The notes under the pieces: model-generated
The model's input: only the letters and a program-made list of their open reading frames with translations
The model's database searches: none
Told to the model about the DNA's origin: nothing
Made by a program: the position numbers and the translations under genes
From: a virus
Virus record (IMG/VR): IMGVR_UViG_3300044957_000619
Strand: one strand, 5' to 3'
DNA length: 64,000 nucleotides
Part shown: positions 3,320 to 59,478 of the stretch, in pieces
Position numbering within the stretch: position 1 is the first letter of the stretch
Layout of the letters: the number at the start of each line of letters is the position of its first letter

Positions 3320-4129
3320 TTATTTCTTATGTAAACGTTTTTGTTTTTTATGCATTTCATATGATTTTTCAATTTGTTTATCATTTAATTTAAAATTAAC
3401 AAATAAATTATCTAAAATATCTGCAATTAATCTTTGTTTTTCTGCTGCAGAATATTTCTTTTTACTAATTGATGAAATCAATTGTTCTAAATGTTTAATA
3501 TATTGGCTAGGTACCTTTTTTAATATCCTTGATTTTTCTATATTAACAACATGAGTATCATGACGTTTTTCAGAAATTAACTGTTTAGCAATTTTTGCAG
3601 ATTCTGATAAAATATCTCCATATTTAACAGTCCATGATAAGTCGGGTGGTGGACCGCCCATGGGTAAACCGCCAGCGGCACCACTTGACGCGCCAGAGGC
3701 TCCGGATTCTTTTTCGGCGTTTTTTTCATCTTCTTTGCCAAAACCCGCAATATCTTCAAGTGGTAATTGCAATTCGAGTGTATACGAATCATCTCGACCC
3801 CAGCCCGTATATGGTACTATTTTAATTAATTTATCTCGTAATAATTTTAAAAGTATTGCTGGCGTTAAATTAAAATCTTTACCACTTCTAGCAATAAATT
3901 CTCGTATGCCAATATCAGAAATGGAGTATAATATACCCATTTGTTGTGATCCATATGCATCAAACTTTCCTAAAAAGCGTTTTTCAGCCGGAGTAAATGG
4001 CGATTCTCCACCAGATGTATTAATATCATCTGTTTCTATAGATGTTTTGCCAGCAACAGCAGCGTCGGCTTGCTCTTTAAGCATGGCTCGCAATGTATGA
4101 TATACTAATATTTCTTGTTGTTTTTGCAT
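3320..4129 (-). CDS. Hypothetical protein, probably virion-associated
   Basis: 269 aa; LRAMLKE and ILSE/LISE motifs like the other tagged proteins; Gly/Pro linker. Confidence 0.55.
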   Translation of the reverse strand: MQKQQEILVYHTLRAMLKEQADAAVAGKTSIETDDINTSGGESPFTPAEKRFLGKFDAYGSQQMGILYSISDIGIREFIARSGKDFNLTPAILLKLLRDKLIKIVPYTGWGRDDSYTLELQLPLEDIAGFGKEDEKNAEKESGASGASSGAAGGLPMGGPPPDLSWTVKYGDILSESAKIAKQLISEKRHDTHVVNIEKSRILKKVPSQYIKHLEQLISSISKKKYSAAEKQRLIADILDNLFVNFKLNDKQIEKSYEMHKKQKRLHKK

Positions 4130-4314
4130 TATTCTGATTTAGATTCTGCTAATTGAGTTGAACGATACTTACTGGCTAATTTTTTAACTTCATTGATTGC
4201 TTTACGTGCTCTAACGCCCGCAGCCTTTACCCCTTTGTCGGTAAATCTTTCGTGATTTTCTTTAAATACTAACCAATGTTGTTCGATTTGATCAAAAATT
4301 TCTTGTGATGTCAT
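4129..4314 (-). CDS. Histone H1-like (Hc1-type) small basic protein
   Basis: KGVKAAGVRARKAINEVKKLA matches the GNKAAGTRARK signature of Bacteroidota histone-H1-like proteins; likely start MTSQ at 4314. Confidence 0.75.
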   Translation of the reverse strand: MTSQEIFDQIEQHWLVFKENHERFTDKGVKAAGVRARKAINEVKKLASKYRSTQLAESKSE

Positions 4315-8923: not shown

Positions 8924-9050
8924 CCCCTTTAACGAAACTCTCCCCACCCCCCCTATTTGACCCCCCCGATCACCCCTTAACACACCCCCATACACCACCC
9001 CCCATACCCCCATAAAAAAAGGGGGGCTATTGCCCCCCCATGATCACCCC
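8924..9050 (-). repeat. Cluster of ten C4-C7 runs (G-runs on minus strand), G-quadruplex-forming potential
   Basis: C-runs at 8924, 8942, 8947, 8961, 8973, 8985, 8998, 9007, 9033, 9047 in an otherwise AT-rich genome. Confidence 0.8.
9014..9039 (-). terminator. Rho-independent terminator closing the early cassette array
   Basis: Minus strand GGGGGGGCAATAGCCCCCCTTTTTTT. Confidence 0.75.
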
Positions 9051-9069
9051 ATTTAAATCAGCGGCACCT

Positions 9070-9324
9070 TTACGCGGCCCGGGTCTCTGATTGCGATGCT
9101 CTTAACTCGGCAGCTGCTATGTTATCAGGATGACGGAAGTCTTGTTGTATACCTAACGTCTCCATCACGTGATATATGGCACACCACTTAATGCCACACC
9201 ACTTACCTCTGAGGCGATCGGTTAATGCATCTTCTGCACCATACCATTGCTGTGCCATCATGTAACGTAAATATGCTTGGGCTTCTTGATTCTGGATCGC
9301 TTGGATCATGTTCTGCTTTGTCAT
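9070..9324 (-). CDS. Hypothetical early protein (cassette)
   Basis: 84 aa behind promoter repeat R1; internal 15-nt duplication (KWCGI-KWCAI). Confidence 0.65.
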   Translation of the reverse strand: MTKQNMIQAIQNQEAQAYLRYMMAQQWYGAEDALTDRLRGKWCGIKWCAIYHVMETLGIQQDFRHPDNIAAAELRASQSETRAA

Positions 9325-9417
9325 TGTCTTTCTCTTTTAATTAATAATAATAAAGATAAGAAATATGTTTCATATATCCTAATCTTTTAGCAACTTTTTT
9401 TACTTTTTTTTATAGCA

Positions 9418-9444
9418 GAAATCCGACGCCTTTCGACGCCGGAT
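9418..9444 (-). terminator. Hairpin, probable terminator after the AAA ATPase
   Basis: ATCCGGCGTC-GAAA-GGCGTCGGAT-TTC. Confidence 0.6.
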
Positions 9445-9466
9445 CCTGGTTTGAGAAATATGTGTT

Positions 9467-10417
9467 CTAAGCCGGGATGATTTGTTCTGCAATCATCATT
9501 TTTGGATTCTCAAAGCCCATTGCACATATGCGTGCTGCTTTGATAAAGCTACGCAGGTTGATCTCTACGCCATCAAACTCTGCATCAAGCTCCTTCATTA
9601 ATGTCAATGCCTGCTCTTTTGCTGGCATCGGAATGCGACGCTCCATTGTTACCATCAACTGCGACATTCTGGCAAACATCTGATCCGTTGTCAATGCAAC
9701 ATCACTTACAAAGCTTCGGCTGCGGATTGCTTCATCCAAGCGGCTTTGGTTGATGTTGGAGATAAAGATGATGCGTCCTGTGAATTCAAAATGACGTGGT
9801 ATTTCACTACCAAACTCGTCTTTAAGAGTCTTTGTGGAGATGTAACTTAGCCTGCGGGTGTCATAAGAATCCAAAGCCGCTTTGAGGATATTAACTGCAT
9901 CATCATCTTTGAATACCGAATCACAGTCATCCAACACAATAACCTTGTCGCTATTCTCATACAGCGTAATAAACAAGCCTGCAGGCGTAGCACGACCCTT
10001 GAAGTGAACAAAGTCGGTAGACTCCTTAAGGCCCAATGACTCCAATGTACTCTTAACCAAATGCGTCTTGCCCGTACCGGCACCTCCGGTAATAACAAGT
10101 GACGGCTGAATGCCGCGCCCTACCATTTTAGTTAGACGCTCAATGTTTGCAAACATCTCCTCCGGGTCCTGGGTTTGCTTGGTTTGCATAAAGGACATCT
10201 TGACAGCCGGAGGTGGTGTCAATGCAACACCCATATCAGCGGCAGGGACTCTGGTAACACGTCCCGTTGCGGATACTACTAATACCTCACGGTTCTTCTC
10301 AGCATTCAGCAGCTGGATGTGTCGGATGGTGTCCTTAGTCGCTATGCTACCTGTGGTTGTGTTCTTAGCAAACAACTTGCCTTTAATTCTAACTGGTTCA
10401 AAAACATTACTCATCAT
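9467..10417 (-). CDS. AAA+/P-loop ATPase
   Basis: Walker A GGAGTGKT, Walker B VIVLDDCD, sensor IFISN, arginine finger AIRSRS. Confidence 0.85.
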   Translation of the reverse strand: MMSNVFEPVRIKGKLFAKNTTTGSIATKDTIRHIQLLNAEKNREVLVVSATGRVTRVPAADMGVALTPPPAVKMSFMQTKQTQDPEEMFANIERLTKMVGRGIQPSLVITGGAGTGKTHLVKSTLESLGLKESTDFVHFKGRATPAGLFITLYENSDKVIVLDDCDSVFKDDDAVNILKAALDSYDTRRLSYISTKTLKDEFGSEIPRHFEFTGRIIFISNINQSRLDEAIRSRSFVSDVALTTDQMFARMSQLMVTMERRIPMPAKEQALTLMKELDAEFDGVEINLRSFIKAARICAMGFENPKMMIAEQIIPA

Positions 10418-10503
10418 GTATCTCTCTTTTTAATTATACTTAAAGATAAGCAAAAAAAGAATGCGATCCAACCGTTTCGCAAACTTTTTTCAAACTTTTT
10501 TTT

Positions 10504-10782
10504 CTAGTTGCCGATATTGTTGAAATCAAAATCATTGACAATGGCATTGATTGCGGATCCGCCATGCTGCGCAGCATGCTTTTGGCCAGCTACTTGGGAC
10601 AACGCCCGGGCAAAGTCTGGAAGGTCACCCTTTGCCTTTGCAACAAGCAACATTTCCATCAAATGGCCCAACAACACAAAGTCTTTATCGTCGGTTAGCA
10701 TTGCTAACACCTCAGCATTGGTTTGAGCATCTGTTACGTTCTGGATTAAGTCCCTAGCTAACTGTTCTTGCATCTTGTTCAT
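10504..10782 (-). CDS. Hypothetical early protein (cassette)
   Basis: Behind repeat R3. Confidence 0.65.
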   Translation of the reverse strand: MNKMQEQLARDLIQNVTDAQTNAEVLAMLTDDKDFVLLGHLMEMLLVAKAKGDLPDFARALSQVAGQKHAAQHGGSAINAIVNDFDFNNIGN

Positions 10783-10863
10783 CGCTCTCTTTTTAATTAT
10801 ACTTAAAGATAAGTAATATGTTTCATATATCCTAATCTTTTTGCAACTTTTTTTAAACTTTTT

Positions 10864-11043
10864 TTAAACTTTTTTTAAGCCTAATTCAGCTGCTACATAA
10901 TTAACATGTTTGGTGGTTGTCTTGCTCCAGTAGCCCAATACAAGTAACTTGTTGCCATTAATGGTTGCTACATGGGTAGTATAAGAAATAACTCGATCTC
11001 CGTCTATTCGAAGATTCTTTTTGTAACGATTCAATTTTTTCAT
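10864..11043 (-). CDS. Hypothetical early protein (59 aa)
   Basis: Likely start MKKLNRY at 11043 after AAAAAGAGAG leader; SYTTHVA...YWSKTTTKHVN phage-type motif. Confidence 0.65.
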   Translation of the reverse strand: MKKLNRYKKNLRIDGDRVISYTTHVATINGNKLLVLGYWSKTTTKHVNYVAAELGLKKV

Positions 11044-11045
11044 GT

Positions 11046-11100
11046 GCTCTCTTTTTACGTCCGCAAGGGCCGACATTGCTGCCGACCCGGGACTGAGAGA
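11046..11100 (-). promoter_or_regulatory. Structured 5' leader sequestering the AGAGAG element
   Basis: Nested pairing CTCTC/GAGAG, GTCC/GGAC and GGGTCGGCA-GCAA-TGTCGGCCC. Confidence 0.55.
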
Positions 11101-11141
11101 TATAGCAAAGATTTTAGCATTGCAATTTGTTAATTGTTCAA

Positions 11142-11495
11142 TCAAATACAAGCTTGGTTCCGGAGACCATACATCATATCGTCGCTTTCCTCAAATATGT
11201 TTTCCATTGTCTCGCGTATCGCTGCAACTATGCGATTCGTGTTTATAGGCACACTCGCCAATACAATGGTGTTGTGATACAAATCAAACTCAGCATTGTC
11301 AAAATCAACTATGTCGCTGCTGTACAAATTGCCAATGGCTTTATCTACAACATCCATTATTTTGTCAAACGACTCGTTATTTAATAGGACCTTTTCTTCC
11401 AACTGCTGGATAAGGGCAATTACTTGGTCGATTGACACTACTGATGTTAATGCCTTTGCTGCTTCTAATTGTGCTACTAATTCTTGTTTTTTCAT
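11142..11495 (-). CDS. Hypothetical early protein (cassette)
   Basis: Behind repeat R4. Confidence 0.65.
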   Translation of the reverse strand: MKKQELVAQLEAAKALTSVVSIDQVIALIQQLEEKVLLNNESFDKIMDVVDKAIGNLYSSDIVDFDNAEFDLYHNTIVLASVPINTNRIVAAIRETMENIFEESDDMMYGLRNQACI

Positions 11496-11559
11496 CGCTT
11501 TTTTTTTTGGTTTTGTGGGACTATTCCCTTTTTAATTATACTTAAATTTAAAGAAAAAA

Positions 11560-11715
11560 TCAATGCGATCCAACCGTTTTATCTTCTAGTTTTGAAAAAT
11601 TTTGCACTACTATTTGGCACACTTCACATAGTATCTGGTTATCTTCGATTCCTACGGCTTCGAGGAAGGTGCATAAGTCAATTTGAATTTGTTCTTTTAC
11701 TTCAGCTTTTGTCAT
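11560..11715 (-). CDS. Small hypothetical protein (51 aa)
   Basis: Not in ORF track; MTKAEVKEQIQIDLCTFLEAVG...; stop lies inside repeat R4. Confidence 0.55.
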   Translation of the reverse strand: MTKAEVKEQIQIDLCTFLEAVGIEDNQILCEVCQIVVQNFSKLEDKTVGSH

Positions 11716-11815
11716 GGCTCTTTTTGATTTATTTACTACTTTTTTTTGCTGCGGCTAATCAACATCATGATTAGCACCACATTGAGCAACAAGCTCATAT
11801 ATACTATCTTGCCTA

Positions 11816-11965
11816 TCATACTCCAATGTATACGGCACCTGTGGTTCCTGTTACTAACTTGTAAACAATAAAGGCAATGCCAAATACAAATAACCCGGTG
11901 CATGCTACTGCTAATGCTTTAAGGGTTACTGCTACTACGTTCTCGATGCTAAACACTTTTTTCAT
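11816..11965 (-). CDS. Small membrane protein (49 aa)
   Basis: Not in ORF track; MKKVFSIENVVAVTLKALAVACTGLFVFGIAFIVYKLV..., directly behind repeat R5. Confidence 0.65.
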   Translation of the reverse strand: MKKVFSIENVVAVTLKALAVACTGLFVFGIAFIVYKLVTGTTGAVYIGV

Positions 11966-12058
11966 TTTTCTCTCTTTTTAATTATACTTAAAGATAAGCA
12001 TTTTTTCAATGCGATCCAACCTTTTTTCAAAAAAAGTTTCAAAAAAGTTATTCACAAT

Positions 12059-12118
12059 CTTGCAAGTTTTTTAACTTCATTGATTGATTTGCGCGCTCTA
12101 ACGCCAGCTGCCTTTGTC
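12059..12118 (-). other. Out-of-frame fragment of a histone-H1-like gene allele
   Basis: 49/57 nt identical to 4172-4228; reads KAAGVRARKSINEVKKLA; nearly all mismatches synonymous. Confidence 0.8.
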
Positions 12119-12310
12119 TATGAATTCAATAACATATTCAAACAGCGCTGGATCATCAATATCAAATCCATCTTCATCTCGGAACACCGTATCGATTACT
12201 TTACCGCGCTCATCTAAATAATCAGTAACCGTAACTATGTTACCTGCTGTCAATTGAACCTGGTACCTTTCTGTAGTGATCGTTTCTACATGTTTACTAA
12301 CTAACTTCAT
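12098..12310 (-). CDS. Hypothetical early protein (cassette)
   Basis: Behind repeat R6; last codons come from the captured H1 fragment. Confidence 0.65.
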   Translation of the reverse strand: MKLVSKHVETITTERYQVQLTAGNIVTVTDYLDERGKVIDTVFRDEDGFDIDDPALFEYVIEFIDKGSWR

Positions 12311-12393
12311 TTCTCTTATTTTTTAATCATACTTAAATTTAAGGACTAAATCAATGCGATCCAACCGTTTCGCAAACTTTTTTCAAACTTTTT

Positions 12394-13131
12394 TTACAGG
12401 TATTGCTCAAGCAATTTGATGCCTGGAAGTGCAGCCAATGCCTCCTCAGCCTGACGAACCAATTGTCGTGCACGCTCATTTGTGATGCCCATCTCCTCAC
12501 CAATCTGCTCCATGCTCTGTGCATACTCAAACCCTAATCCATAATTACGACGCAATGCTTCTGCTTGCCTAGGCTTCAATTGTGCCAATGCTCTATCAAT
12601 GTCAAACTGCAGATCCGCGCGGTCTCTGCTGCTGCGCACCTCATCGGCTGCTAAGTATCGATCCGCATATGTCTCTTTGTTCTCATCATCGCCTACCGGA
12701 GTGGAAATGCGCTTGATGGAGTACTCTTCGGTAGCCGTACGGTGTGATGGAATCCTTACTGTGCGAGACAAATCATTAAGGGCCTTCTGCAACTCGGCGC
12801 GGATATACCATACTGCAAACGTAATGAATTTAACATTCTTGCTGGTATCAAATCGATCCACAGCCTCAAACAATCCAATGTTGGCAAATGCTATAAGATC
12901 TTCCATCTCCAAGCCCATGCCCTGATACTGACGGGCCACTTGCACCGCAAACCGCAAATTGCTTTCTATTATGGTATTGCGTGCCTTAAGGGAGCCTGCC
13001 TGTGCTGCTTGGATTAACTGGGTCTCGTCTTCTCTGCTAATGACCCGAGCCTTCTTTATCTCGGCTACATAACGCTTTGTGGATTCGGCGCCTACTATTG
13101 CACCATTTGTAACATTGATTCTTCTTTTCAT
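12394..13131 (-). CDS. Sigma-70 family (RpoD/SigA-like) RNA polymerase sigma factor
   Basis: Region 2 NLRFAVQVARQYQGMGL..DLI...NIGL..AVDRFD...KFITFAVWYIR, RTVRIP, region 4 HTH SMEQIGEEMGITNERARQL; no region 1.1. Confidence 0.92.
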   Translation of the reverse strand: MKRRINVTNGAIVGAESTKRYVAEIKKARVISREDETQLIQAAQAGSLKARNTIIESNLRFAVQVARQYQGMGLEMEDLIAFANIGLFEAVDRFDTSKNVKFITFAVWYIRAELQKALNDLSRTVRIPSHRTATEEYSIKRISTPVGDDENKETYADRYLAADEVRSSRDRADLQFDIDRALAQLKPRQAEALRRNYGLGFEYAQSMEQIGEEMGITNERARQLVRQAEEALAALPGIKLLEQYL

Positions 13132-13134
13132 AAC

Positions 13135-13210
13135 GCTTATTTCTTTTTGTATATTATACCGGGTTTCTTGCTCTAGGGTTACCTTTTTTTCAAACTTTTT
13201 TGAAACTTTT
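13135..13210 (-). promoter_or_regulatory. Second-class promoter upstream of the sigma gene
   Basis: A-tracts-GGTAACCCT-N13-CGGTATAAT; related GGTAACCCT...GGTTATTTAT at ~14340-14372. Confidence 0.5.
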
Positions 13211-13221
13211 TTAGCCCCGCA

Positions 13222-13407
13222 CTATTTTACTATGTGGGGTTTCTGTAATGCTGCTTGAGCTTCTCTGTAAATGCGGTTGCGTTCTGCTTGTGCCATTGCA
13301 TGTTTTACTGCTGCATTTAATTGCTGAGGACGTTTTGCATCTGCCAACAACCGGGCTGACACTGCATCTTGCTTGAAAAATCCTGAATTCTTTTTGCCTA
13401 CTGCCAT
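13222..13407 (-). CDS. Hypothetical early protein (cassette)
   Basis: Behind repeat R7. Confidence 0.65.
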   Translation of the reverse strand: MAVGKKNSGFFKQDAVSARLLADAKRPQQLNAAVKHAMAQAERNRIYREAQAALQKPHIVK

Positions 13408-13624
13408 ATCTCTTATTTTTTAATTATACTTAAATTTAAGGACTAAATCAATGCGATCCTAATCTTTTGCAAACTTTTTTTGAAAAAGTTATTCACAATT
13501 TTCTGCTTCATCTGCTTCAAGTATTCTATCGATATACTGCCGGATTAGTCAAGCAATTTTTCGTTTTCATGGCGTTTTGTTTCAATGTGCGTTACGGATG
13601 CGCACCCCCCCCCGGATTGGTAAT

Positions 13625-13861
13625 TTATTGATTGTTAATAATATCGTTTACTAATTCATGAGCGTCATGCCATTGAGCCCAACGTGTAAGTGACCGAATG
13701 TATTCGGGTGATTCTTTACCCAAATGCGTCTCGCAAAGATTCAAGAAGTCCCGCTCTTGTCTTTGTCGTAATCGTAATTGCTCAAGGATAAGGTCCAACT
13801 TGATTTGTGCGGTCTCTTGCGCTTGTTCGCCGGTGTTGTTTTGTTGGTTCATTGTTTCCAT
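13625..13861 (-). CDS. Hypothetical early protein
   Basis: 78-aa ORF, second gene of the R8 cassette. Confidence 0.6.
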   Translation of the reverse strand: METMNQQNNTGEQAQETAQIKLDLILEQLRLRQRQERDFLNLCETHLGKESPEYIRSLTRWAQWHDAHELVNDIINNQ

Positions 13862-13867
13862 GTTGTT

Positions 13868-14035
13868 TTATTCTTCTAATTGATCTATAACTGATTTAAT
13901 TACACCTTCTAAATATCCATAACAATATGCTCCGGTCAACAACGTTCCATCCGCTTTCTTAGCCCATCTTTCTTGAGCTACAGCTAGTTTCTTTTTCAAT
14001 GATGCTACTAATGCTTTTTTTTCTGCTTTTGTCAT
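13868..14035 (-). CDS. Small hypothetical early protein (55 aa)
   Basis: Not in ORF track; MTKAEKKALVASLKKKLAVAQERW...YCYGYLEGVIKSVIDQLEE directly behind repeat R8. Confidence 0.7.
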   Translation of the reverse strand: MTKAEKKALVASLKKKLAVAQERWAKKADGTLLTGAYCYGYLEGVIKSVIDQLEE

Positions 14036-14129
14036 TTTACTCTCTTTTTAATTATACTTAAAGATAAGAAAAAAAAGAATGCGATCCAACCGTTTCGCAA
14101 ACTTTTTCCAAACTTTTTTTAAGTTTCAA

Positions 14130-14351
14130 TTATCCTACTTCTTTTTCTTCTACTGAGGCGTATGTGTCTCTTCCGTGTGCACTATACGTCTCAAGGATCA
14201 TGTTTTTCTCTCGAGCTATTTTTTTAAGTTCCCACAGTGCATCTTTTTCCTTTTCATAAACTGAAATTGAAACCCAATCCGGTTCGCTGAACATTAACAC
14301 AAAAACTGTTTTTCTTTTTATCTGTCTTATTTTAATTTTATAAATAACCAA
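14130..14351 (-). CDS. Hypothetical protein, start uncertain (possibly degenerate)
   Basis: Protein-like from KTVFVLMF; the annotated upstream part overlaps a promoter-like sequence. Confidence 0.4.
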   Translation of the reverse strand: MVIYKIKIRQIKRKTVFVLMFSEPDWVSISVYEKEKDALWELKKIAREKNMILETYSAHGRDTYASVEEKEVG

Positions 14352-14375
14352 AATTTTGTAAAGGGTTACCCTTTT

Positions 14376-14774
14376 TTATAAAAAAAGTTTTGAAAAAGTT
14401 TCAGCCGTTTTAAGTGGACCTTTAAAGTCATTTTCACGTCCCCATATTTCAGCTAAGCCGGAGTGGCTGCACTTAGGAATTACTGTATATACTACATTAC
14501 ATGTCTCGATATTGCATATACGGAAATCATCATACAATGGGCCGCGGCCCGGGCAATTGTTTTTGAAGAATACATAATGATCCAAAAGATCAATGTCATA
14601 CGCTTTAACAAAGCGCTCGGTTTGTTTCATCAACGTCCGGGCTTTGCGCGCTAAAGATGAATCCTTGCAAAACCAATCATAGAAATTGAAACATTTTGAT
14701 TGACTCCCATCGGCATCTAATATTAAGCCATTTGCTTGGGCATTTAATTGATCTGCTAAACTAACTCTGTTCAT
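14376..14774 (-). CDS. Hypothetical early protein (cassette)
   Basis: FYDWFCKD...YVFFKNNCP...LYDDFRICN; behind repeat R9. Confidence 0.7.
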   Translation of the reverse strand: MNRVSLADQLNAQANGLILDADGSQSKCFNFYDWFCKDSSLARKARTLMKQTERFVKAYDIDLLDHYVFFKNNCPGRGPLYDDFRICNIETCNVVYTVIPKCSHSGLAEIWGRENDFKGPLKTAETFSKLFL

Positions 14775-14864
14775 TTCTCTTATTTTTTAATTATACTTAA
14801 AGATAAGCATTTTTTCAATGCGATCCAACCAAAATCCAAAAAAAGTTTAAAAAAAGTTATTCAC

Positions 14865-15026
14865 AAAAAAAGGGCGACCGAAGCCGCCCATGGTACACGC
14901 CTGGGAATAAGAGAGAGAAACCCGTTGGTCATGTTACCCATAATGAGACGGGATCGAGGTGTTAGCGCTAACACCATGGTGGTTACGATCCCGCCAAGTG
15001 TGAAGGTCGATACTATCGATCCCGTC
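14865..15026 (-). ncRNA. Structured RNA / long 3'-UTR ending in a terminator
   Basis: 11-bp stem GACGGGATCGA/TCGATCCCGTC, palindrome GGTGTTAGCGCTAACACC, competing GGCGGGATCG copy, CU-rich segment, terminator GGGCGGC-TTCG-GTCGCCC-T7. Confidence 0.55.
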
Positions 15027-39829: not shown

Positions 39830-40506
39830 TGCAAAGATTTTAGCATTGCAATCATACGAGGACAAGGATAAATGTCCGATTTATCTTTTCGATAAGAATT
39901 ATGCGTATAAACGCCCGGTTCTCCTTTCAAGGCGCTCGTTGATACCGTCCACATATCATCTTCCCGATATGTTAAATCAATGCTATAAGTTTCATTCCAA
40001 TATACCAGTAATTGACGCGTTGATTCAATTTGTGCATCAGTATATCGATGATAGAATTTATGTCCTTTATATGGAGTTTCTAATTCAGTAACTTGATCTG
40101 CAGGAATTTCTCGATCTACATAGTTATAAAATTTGCCATTAACTCGATCCAACGGGCCCCAGTTACAAATCTCAATACCAATTGCATGTTTATCTAATGC
40201 TCGGCGTAGCAAACCTTTTGATTTGAATACATCTGGTTTGATTCCTAAATGATATCCCCAATACTTAGATGAAAATGCTTGACAAATTTCGCCATCATAT
40301 GTATCTTTTGATTGACCTTTACCTGAAATTGTAACGCAGGTTGCAATGCGACCTCTATCATCCGTATCCCACATTCTAATAGTGCCAACGCCGGAAGAGT
40401 TGCCAGCAGTATGATGAAGTACAATTTGTTTCTTTTCTGTTGCTTCTTTAATGTATTGTGATTCGCTCAATGGAATTTGTTTGATTTTTGATGTATCTAG
40501 TTTCAT
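39826..40506 (-). CDS. N-acetylmuramoyl-L-alanine amidase (endolysin)
   Basis: IVLHHTAG, AIGIEICNWG, YTDAQIES, HNSYRKDKSD. Confidence 0.88.
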   Translation of the reverse strand: MKLDTSKIKQIPLSESQYIKEATEKKQIVLHHTAGNSSGVGTIRMWDTDDRGRIATCVTISGKGQSKDTYDGEICQAFSSKYWGYHLGIKPDVFKSKGLLRRALDKHAIGIEICNWGPLDRVNGKFYNYVDREIPADQVTELETPYKGHKFYHRYTDAQIESTRQLLVYWNETYSIDLTYREDDMWTVSTSALKGEPGVYTHNSYRKDKSDIYPCPRMIAMLKSLQ

Positions 40507-58833: not shown

Positions 58834-59478
58834 TTATATAAAATTCCAATTTAAGTATCTATCATTCTTACATCTATTAGACACAGTTTCAGCACATATA
58901 TTATAAAATCTAGCTGCTGATTGTAATGATTTGAATATTATTCCATTAATACATACTTGTTTTGCATTTTTAGATGCAGGATTGCCTTTATAATTATTAT
59001 GTCGTTCTTTAAACTTACCTTTAAAATTACCATGAGATTGGCCCGAATTAAAAAAAATACCATCATGTATATTTTTTAACTTTGTTTCTTCTGCCCGATT
59101 ATGTATTTCTAGATTTGCTCCTGGATTTTGATCACCCGAATAGCCTAATTTATGTTTTATTTTTTCATATAAAATGTCTCCTTTTTTATATGTTAAACCA
59201 CCATTGCCGCCTTGTGTCATATTATAACCATTTTTATATGTATCTAATTTAGATATCCAAAATCGTTCTCGTTCATTTATATCATCGGTTTCATTTAATG
59301 TTTCTAAAATAATCCATTCAAATTCGGAATTTAATCTTAAAGATTGATGAAAATTTGTATCTGATAACAGTCGTAATGCCGAATCATAATGACCATTCTT
59401 ACGTTCTTCTAAAGTTTTTGTCGTCTTCCCAACATACATTTTATCATTATCTTTATTTTTAGCACAATATATTATCAT
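58834..59478 (-). CDS. GIY-YIG homing endonuclease
   Basis: IIYCAKN...MYVGKT, R..GH, ERFWI, GYNMTQGG, C-terminal HTH FKSLQSAAR. Confidence 0.88.
   Translation of the reverse strand: MIIYCAKNKDNDKMYVGKTTKTLEERKNGHYDSALRLLSDTNFHQSLRLNSEFEWIILETLNETDDINERERFWISKLDTYKNGYNMTQGGNGGLTYKKGDILYEKIKHKLGYSGDQNPGANLEIHNRAEETKLKNIHDGIFFNSGQSHGNFKGKFKERHNNYKGNPASKNAKQVCINGIIFKSLQSAARFYNICAETVSNRCKNDRYLNWNFI

Follow-up and report, generated by a model that had tools for sequence, protein, structure and literature searches.

According to the general model, the mosaicism of phage genomes is created at junctions of illegitimate or homeologous recombination. The locus described here, in an uncultured 158-kb freshwater phage, resembles the products of such exchanges (for example, those of a study of lambda Red recombination, PMC2327257) in that its joints lie at gene or module boundaries, show little or no homology, would involve co-infecting relatives and are found among the small genes and repeated promoters of a hypervariable early region. 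It differs in that what appears to have been copied, before the original template was resumed, is a short stretch from inside a distant core gene, with no swap of a whole gene or module, and in that an exact empty site is available for comparison. Insertions of templated "filler DNA" in the end-joining repair of double-strand breaks have been described mainly in eukaryotes (PMC5217109, PMC9023269), and they share with the present case the copying of tens of nucleotides from elsewhere, a microhomology of 1-2 nt, the loss of few target bases and the lack of a target-site duplication. Here, however, the template is a diverged allele, whose divergence makes it probable that a second genome in the same cell carried it, and the enzymes and the break are only presumed.

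Two other systems invite comparison. The acquisition of CRISPR spacers also places short phage-derived DNA beside a repeated element, but at this locus a promoter repeat lies on one side only, paired repeats and a fixed length are lacking and the piece overlaps a coding end. Diversity-generating retroelements likewise present a second, diverged partial copy of a gene in the same genome and in the same orientation; unlike them, the phage considered here has no reverse transcriptase, the differences between the copies are synonymous rather than adenine-specific, and the copy is out of frame.

The phage genome and its early cassette array

The IMG/VR record IMGVR_UViG_3300044957_000619 is a complete viral genome of 158,320 bp with direct terminal repeats, from which a stretch of 64,000 nt (the window) was analysed. 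Almost all of the genes are carried by the minus strand. No close cultured relative was found among 50,697 phage records by megablast of positions 9000-14000 or by tblastn of the protein P0002 discussed below; the relatives are known as metagenome contigs, at least one of them labelled freshwater. Positions 9000-15000 of the window hold an array of small genes, most of which have upstream of them a copy of a repeat of ~100 nt that contains a sigma-70-like promoter (for example TTGAAA-17-TATAAT, from 12009 to 11981). The array also encodes a sigma factor and an AAA ATPase, its remaining neighbours being small unknowns.

The content and order of these cassettes vary among very close relatives, while the flanking core genes are collinear (L012, L013, L015-L017 and L034-L037 compared with window positions 9000-15000). 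Among the relatives, three different cassettes are found downstream of the P0002 cassette, which is missing from the contigs of several close ones; for these reasons the boundary between gene and repeat is considered recombination-active.

Irregular joints are also seen elsewhere in the array. A gene for 51 amino acids (11560-11715, minus strand) runs into the promoter-repeat copy at ~11509-11611, so that the conserved GGTTGGATCGCATTGA core of the repeat encodes the C-terminal residues (..KTVGSH) together with the stop codon; this repeat copy lacks the half that contains the A-tract. At 13500-13624 (minus strand), ~105 nt without a convincing gene separate the stop of gene 13625-13861 from the promoter repeat that follows; this stretch contains a run of nine G, ends in the ..ENCE-stop edge that the empty P0002 site also has, and might be what remains of a lost cassette. 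Two ORFs with GIY-YIG domains, in open frames of 240 and 219 aa, are possibly homing endonucleases (C1:130604-130861, window 59221-59478, and C1:32488-32715); both genes, and a weak match to HNH_3, are distant from the array.

An Hc1-derived block at the end of an early gene

The features that bear on the insertion are listed here by their coordinates in the window.

4129-4314, minus strand: resident intact Hc1 (histone-H1-like) gene, P0001 (PF07432, E 1.6e-14); its segment 4172-4228 is the counterpart of the fragment
12098-12310, minus strand: small early gene P0002, 70 aa, of no known family, with its C-terminus rewritten from ..EFIENCE to ..EFIDKGSWR
12059-12118, minus strand: Hc1-derived tract of internal codons, sense, out of frame with the host ORF, 49/57 identical to 4172-4228 and matched by the Hc1 profile
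12062-12117, minus strand: net gain of 56 nt over the empty site of close relatives (alignment A3 against L012 and L013; same empty site in L015, L016 and L017)
12047-12058, minus strand: 5' edge of the promoter-repeat variant, with stop codons in two frames, directly adjoining the insert
11955-12057, minus strand: intact promoter repeat of the next cassette (repeat family D1; promoter scan 11/12)

The gene at 4129-4314 is the only full Hc1 copy in the genome, and its intact ORF, which matches PF07432 with 53.9 bits against a cut-off of 23.5 over model positions 2-57 of 57, places it in the Hc1 family. The preliminary description of this DNA had reported an ungapped match between 12059-12115 and 4172-4228, with seven of the eight differences synonymous. 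That report holds: the 49 identities in 57 nt (86%) have E = 4.9e-14 against the whole 158-kb genome, and the synonymous bias has a binomial P = 3e-4 (Nei-Gojobori site counts). The mismatches are of mixed types and not adenine-specific. On the minus strand the fragment reads KAAGVRARKSINEVKKLA, with TAG upstream and TGA downstream (in full, TAG-T-KAAGVRARKSINEVKKLA-RL-TGA), and no suitably placed ATG, GTG or TTG is found to start this frame. The Hc1 profile gives the fragment 22.5 bits (E 1.7e-5), which is below the cut-off of 23.5, covers model positions 18-45 only and has the TAG inside the match; with this score and no start-equipped open frame, the tract at 12059-12118 does not qualify as an Hc1 gene.

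The host of the insertion, P0002, has no match in Pfam or PHROG. Its homologues in a set of 5.8 billion proteins fall into six clusters, three of which are 91-92% identical to it, 68 aa long and end in ..EYVIEFIENCE. The orthologues are under purifying selection (pN 0.02 versus pS 0.15-0.42), which indicates that P0002 is a real gene. Distant members of the family carry assorted acidic tails and are thus variable at the C-terminus; from such comparisons the extreme C-terminus of P0002 looks tolerant of change, and the alteration of the tail by the insertion was probably tolerated.

Five contigs from different samples (L012, L013, L015, L016 and L017) contain the empty site. Their P0002 orthologues, 90-95% identical at the nucleotide level, run straight into the repeat edge with no Hc1 sequence and encode proteins ending in EFIENCE, and the site differs from that of the window only by the inserted block. 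In alignment A3 the gene and the downstream promoter repeat are collinear with those of the relatives, with a single extra block of 56 nt in the window; an adjacent A-to-G difference permits the equivalent description of 59 nt replacing AAA. The insertion point lies four codons before the ancestral stop, on the sense strand. The piece had been placed between the gene and the repeat called R5, but it has been inserted within the 3' end of ORF 12098-12310 and is not an intergenic spacer. It was correctly described as out of frame with that ORF, as the last six codons of P0002 and its stop (TAG) are read from the insert in a frame other than that of Hc1. The effect of the insertion is the replacement of the poorly conserved ENCE tail by DKGSWR and the addition of ~40 nt of untranslated RNA upstream of the intact next promoter. 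No terminator-like site separates P0002 from the next cassette, so that the early mRNA probably includes the piece.

The exact P0002 protein with its tail read from the insert is called on 4 contigs, and a 6.2-kb locus fetched from a 158,192-bp contig (L014) is 100% identical to the window over the shared 5.9 kb, throughout the region. By these matches the insertion allele is reproducible.

The joints carry little homology. The target reads ..CATAGA/AA/ATTGTG.., and the donor ..GA/CAAAGG.. at one end and ..TTGCAAG/T.. at the other; the overlaps amount to just 1-2 nt, and no target duplication, inverted ends or terminal repeats are found. Scant homology at the joints, a class of templates in the Hc1 alleles (45-51/57, with no exact donor) and the lack of mobile-element hallmarks are features of a templated patch. 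Little is left of the GACAAAGG microhomology that had been noted at the junction: its GA is already present in the empty target (..CATAGAAAA..) and its AAAGG is the start of the match, so that only the C is unexplained. All Hc1 alleles have GA(C/T)AAAGG 8 nt upstream of the AA(A/G)GC at which the ungapped match starts, and in L010 and L031 this forms a perfect AAAGG..AAAGG direct repeat. At the 5' joint the frame of Hc1 is in register with that of the host (F-I-D-K-G), and it stays open for 21 codons before meeting the TGA.

On the other side of the insertion point, the empty site continues with 16 nt (GAAAATTGTGAATAAC) that also form the 5' edge of two further copies of the promoter repeat in the window. 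The final 12 nt of this sequence are found in the distant relatives L005 and L006 as well; there the gene terminates on the same TGA but in a different frame. Taken as 12047-12058, the edge is found at two other repeat copies of the window and in L005, L006 and L012-L017. An edge common to other repeat copies and to distant relatives places the insert exactly at the junction between gene-specific sequence and shared repeat. The earlier assignment of the piece to a cassette boundary is thus borne out, and a second boundary, described below, also carries a copied piece.

The donor allele and a second copied patch

A protein search with Hc1 gave 162 homologues at E <= 1e-8, with PF07432 in all 120 of the 162 that were listed, and the protein is nearly invariant across the more than 120 clusters inspected. 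Among the natural Hc1 alleles a common one, P0009, encodes exactly the 18-aa peptide of the fragment; it shares 98% identity with the resident Hc1, and 112 blocks of the collection list it. The DNA of the S-type allele P0009 (10 contigs) and of P0043 matches the fragment at 46-51 of 57 positions, and the best of all alleles compared (51/57) are L010 and L031, and L040 and L043. The 6-11 differences between the fragment and the S-type alleles are all synonymous (P from 2e-4 down to 2e-7), and each of the fragment's variant bases that were compared is present in some sampled allele. Scans with degenerate peptide patterns recovered 3 loci in IMG/VR and 16 in JGI metagenomes, all with intact-looking Hc1 coding context upstream and again with 51/57 as the best match. 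A donor identical to the piece, in an intact H1 gene of another phage, had been named as a sign of capture and was found in none of IMG/VR, the JGI metagenomes and the contigs of the allele set; an exact 32-mer of the fragment is absent from IMG/VR.

The resident Hc1 differs from the genes of close relatives at 6-8 of the 57 positions of this segment, which is rich in four-fold-degenerate sites, so that the 8/57 of the fragment represents ordinary divergence between relatives. In the comparison of the resident gene (4129-4314) with L034-L043, 6-8 of the 8-11 differences fall within gene positions 87-143, a clustering attributed to four-fold-degenerate Ala/Gly/Val/Arg codons. Gene conversion of the resident Hc1 by the fragment was considered and dropped, the resident being no closer to the fragment than are the alleles of relatives.

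The host gene differs from its counterpart in the empty-site contig L013 by a pS of only 0.15, which indicates a young insertion. The earlier view that the piece was copied from a functioning homologue, rather than having decayed in place, is supported by the empty site, the lack of a second Hc1 gene in relatives, the synonymous-only differences from S-type alleles and the P0009 peptide. Divergence and synonymous bias together suggest a foreign allele. The source might be the working allele of an unsampled, co-circulating relative, which is the simplest reading, or an older resident allele that was later replaced.

Self-BLAST of the array against the whole genome brought out one more feature.

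11105-11126, minus strand: second copied patch, likewise at a cassette junction, which repeats exactly 22 nt from the 3' end of the endolysin gene (39831-39852)

This is the only other duplicate in the array that is not a promoter; it has the same orientation as 39831-39852 and is flanked by the stop of gene 11142-11495 on one side and by the conserved leader of a DUF8033 gene on the other. The other boundaries, to which the preliminary description had also drawn attention, thus include one with a copied fragment, which argues against a pure one-off. The 22-mer is missing from the equivalent junction upstream of the DUF8033 leader in L034, L036 and even the distant L006, and it was not found in the fetched loci when up to 3 mismatches were allowed. 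As an insertion it is less secure than the 56-nt piece, for its junction has no close empty-site relative. Part of the 22-mer is the palindrome ATTGCAAT, of which the window holds 16 copies, as opposed to 7.2 +/- 2.6 in dinucleotide shuffles (0/100 reach 16); the sites include 11119, 39845, 54301, 54459 and 54769, and the motif could be protein-binding or related to methylation or restriction.

The presence of two patches among about a dozen junctions suggests that this lineage acquires short templated fillers repeatedly at its cassette edges. Error-prone recombination at a hot boundary accounts for such a recurrence no less well than would a dedicated mechanism.

How the block might have arisen

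The explanation that we favour, with a probability of roughly 0.7, is a young and probably neutral insertion of a templated patch from an Hc1 allele, through illegitimate copy-choice or break repair. In a recent ancestor, replication or the repair of a break would have switched template at the junction of P0002 with the next promoter repeat; ~57-67 nt would have been copied, in the same orientation, from the middle of an Hc1 gene that was most likely on a co-infecting close relative; and synthesis would then have returned to the original template. The clean coding appearance of the piece would follow from its youth and from its having been copied out of a gene under selection, and we infer that it has no function of its own. 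The variable cassette orders and the 22-nt patch mark the array as prone to recombination, so scars are expected to gather at cassette edges. "Only a recombination scar" had been the last of the possibilities offered by the preliminary description and is the one that the evidence favours. Three points count against it, namely that the best donor reaches only 51/57, that the 5' joint is in register and that one array holds two patches, the last being a hint of something more regular than rare accidents.

The register of the 5' joint is the starting point for an explanation in which the block was once functional. An original in-frame insert of 64 nt would have given P0002 a 22-aa basic, DNA-binding Hc1 helix (..EFIDKGVKAAGVRARK..LARL), with its stop at the TGA of the repeat edge, and a later 8-nt slippage deletion between two AAAGG repeats would have broken the fusion; alternatively, +1 ribosomal frameshifting would allow the shift to be bypassed. 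The sequence of the Hc1 alleles lends itself to such a history, given the GA(C/T)AAAGG upstream in all of them and the perfect direct repeat in L010 and L031: with 56 + 8 nt, the Hc1 frame becomes continuous with the host frame and reaches a TGA two codons past the junction, and F-I-D-K-G is found in natural alleles such as P0010, P0043 and L033. However, beyond the bases supplied by the target the longer tract is backed by one base (the C), the agreement of frames has a 1-in-3 chance, and a fused protein of ~90 aa is not present among the 5.8 billion proteins, although the length window of that search covered such a size. As for frameshifting, the 17-nt overlap between the two stops has no recognisable slippery motif, and the relatives lack the second frame or the tail altogether, so that neither a slippery site nor a two-frame arrangement kept in relatives is found. 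We regard this graft of a domain as unlikely. A wider version of it, which is also improbable, would derive both patches from a regular process: short copies of phage DNA would serve to mend breaks at the edges of cassettes and promoter repeats, and now and then an early gene would gain a peptide module in this way. On this view the Hc1 helix would have been an in-frame DNA-binding tail, seen just after a disabling 8-nt deletion.

The coming and going of cassettes in the array, and the ~105 nt of apparently non-coding leftover at another junction (~13500-13624), might be taken to mean that an ancestor had a full second Hc1 cassette of which two deletions left 57 nt. These two deletions would also have had to restore the repeat edge exactly, however, and the same clean empty site is shared by five relatives with three different downstream neighbours. 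A full second H1 gene at this position in relatives, which had been recognised as the sign of a simple deletion remnant, was not found; the arrays of the relatives hold no second Hc1 and the full copy in the genome is single. We give such a remnant very little credence, and hardly differently do we judge a role for the block as a functional RNA or DNA element, either a sense Hc1 decoy for RNA-guided defence or the product of a dedicated, spacer-like acquisition at cassette edges. The sense orientation, the probable transcription in the absence of a terminator before the next cassette, and the second patch of the phage's own sequence at another junction are what such a role has in its favour. 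Against it, the RNA fold of the region is no better than those of shuffled sequences (z = 0.75), and a sense copy is unable to pair with Hc1 mRNA; the decoy and the template for antisense RNA that had been put forward are thus unsupported. The proposed likeness to spacer acquisition fails on the arrangement, in which a repeat is present on the 3' side only, paired and uniformly spaced repeats do not bracket the pieces, and the two patches differ in size (56 and ~22 nt). The arrays of relatives, compared with the rest of the phage genome, contain no pieces of core genes but only marginal matches of 17-26 nt, and all other matches to the fragment pattern lie inside intact-looking Hc1 coding context. 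A degenerate 29-nt pattern, run against one genome per GTDB species as a weak test for spacers, had a distant bacterial Hc1 gene as its sole match. The complete genome has no match to a reverse transcriptase (RVT_1), and this, together with mismatches to the resident gene that are not adenine-specific, excludes a relation of the kind seen in diversity-generating retroelements. An artefact of assembly or a chimeric contig might be suspected for any record that is a metagenome assembly, but it is scarcely credible here: the exact P0002 protein occurs on 4 contigs, one of which was fetched (L014) and is identical over the whole region, both flanks continue the sequence of the relatives, and a stretch of 57 nt at 86% identity would not mislead an assembler.

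The templated insertion that we favour belongs to a known kind of event, of which it is a new and well-resolved case, and it gives no pointer to a new device of defence or counter-defence. As natural instances go of pieces of one gene being pasted into another phage gene, this one is unusually clean, since the filled site, the empty site and the family of donor alleles are all known. The event took place exactly at the edge of a shuffling promoter cassette, and it can help to calibrate how frequently such patches arise and whether new protein tails ever come of them.
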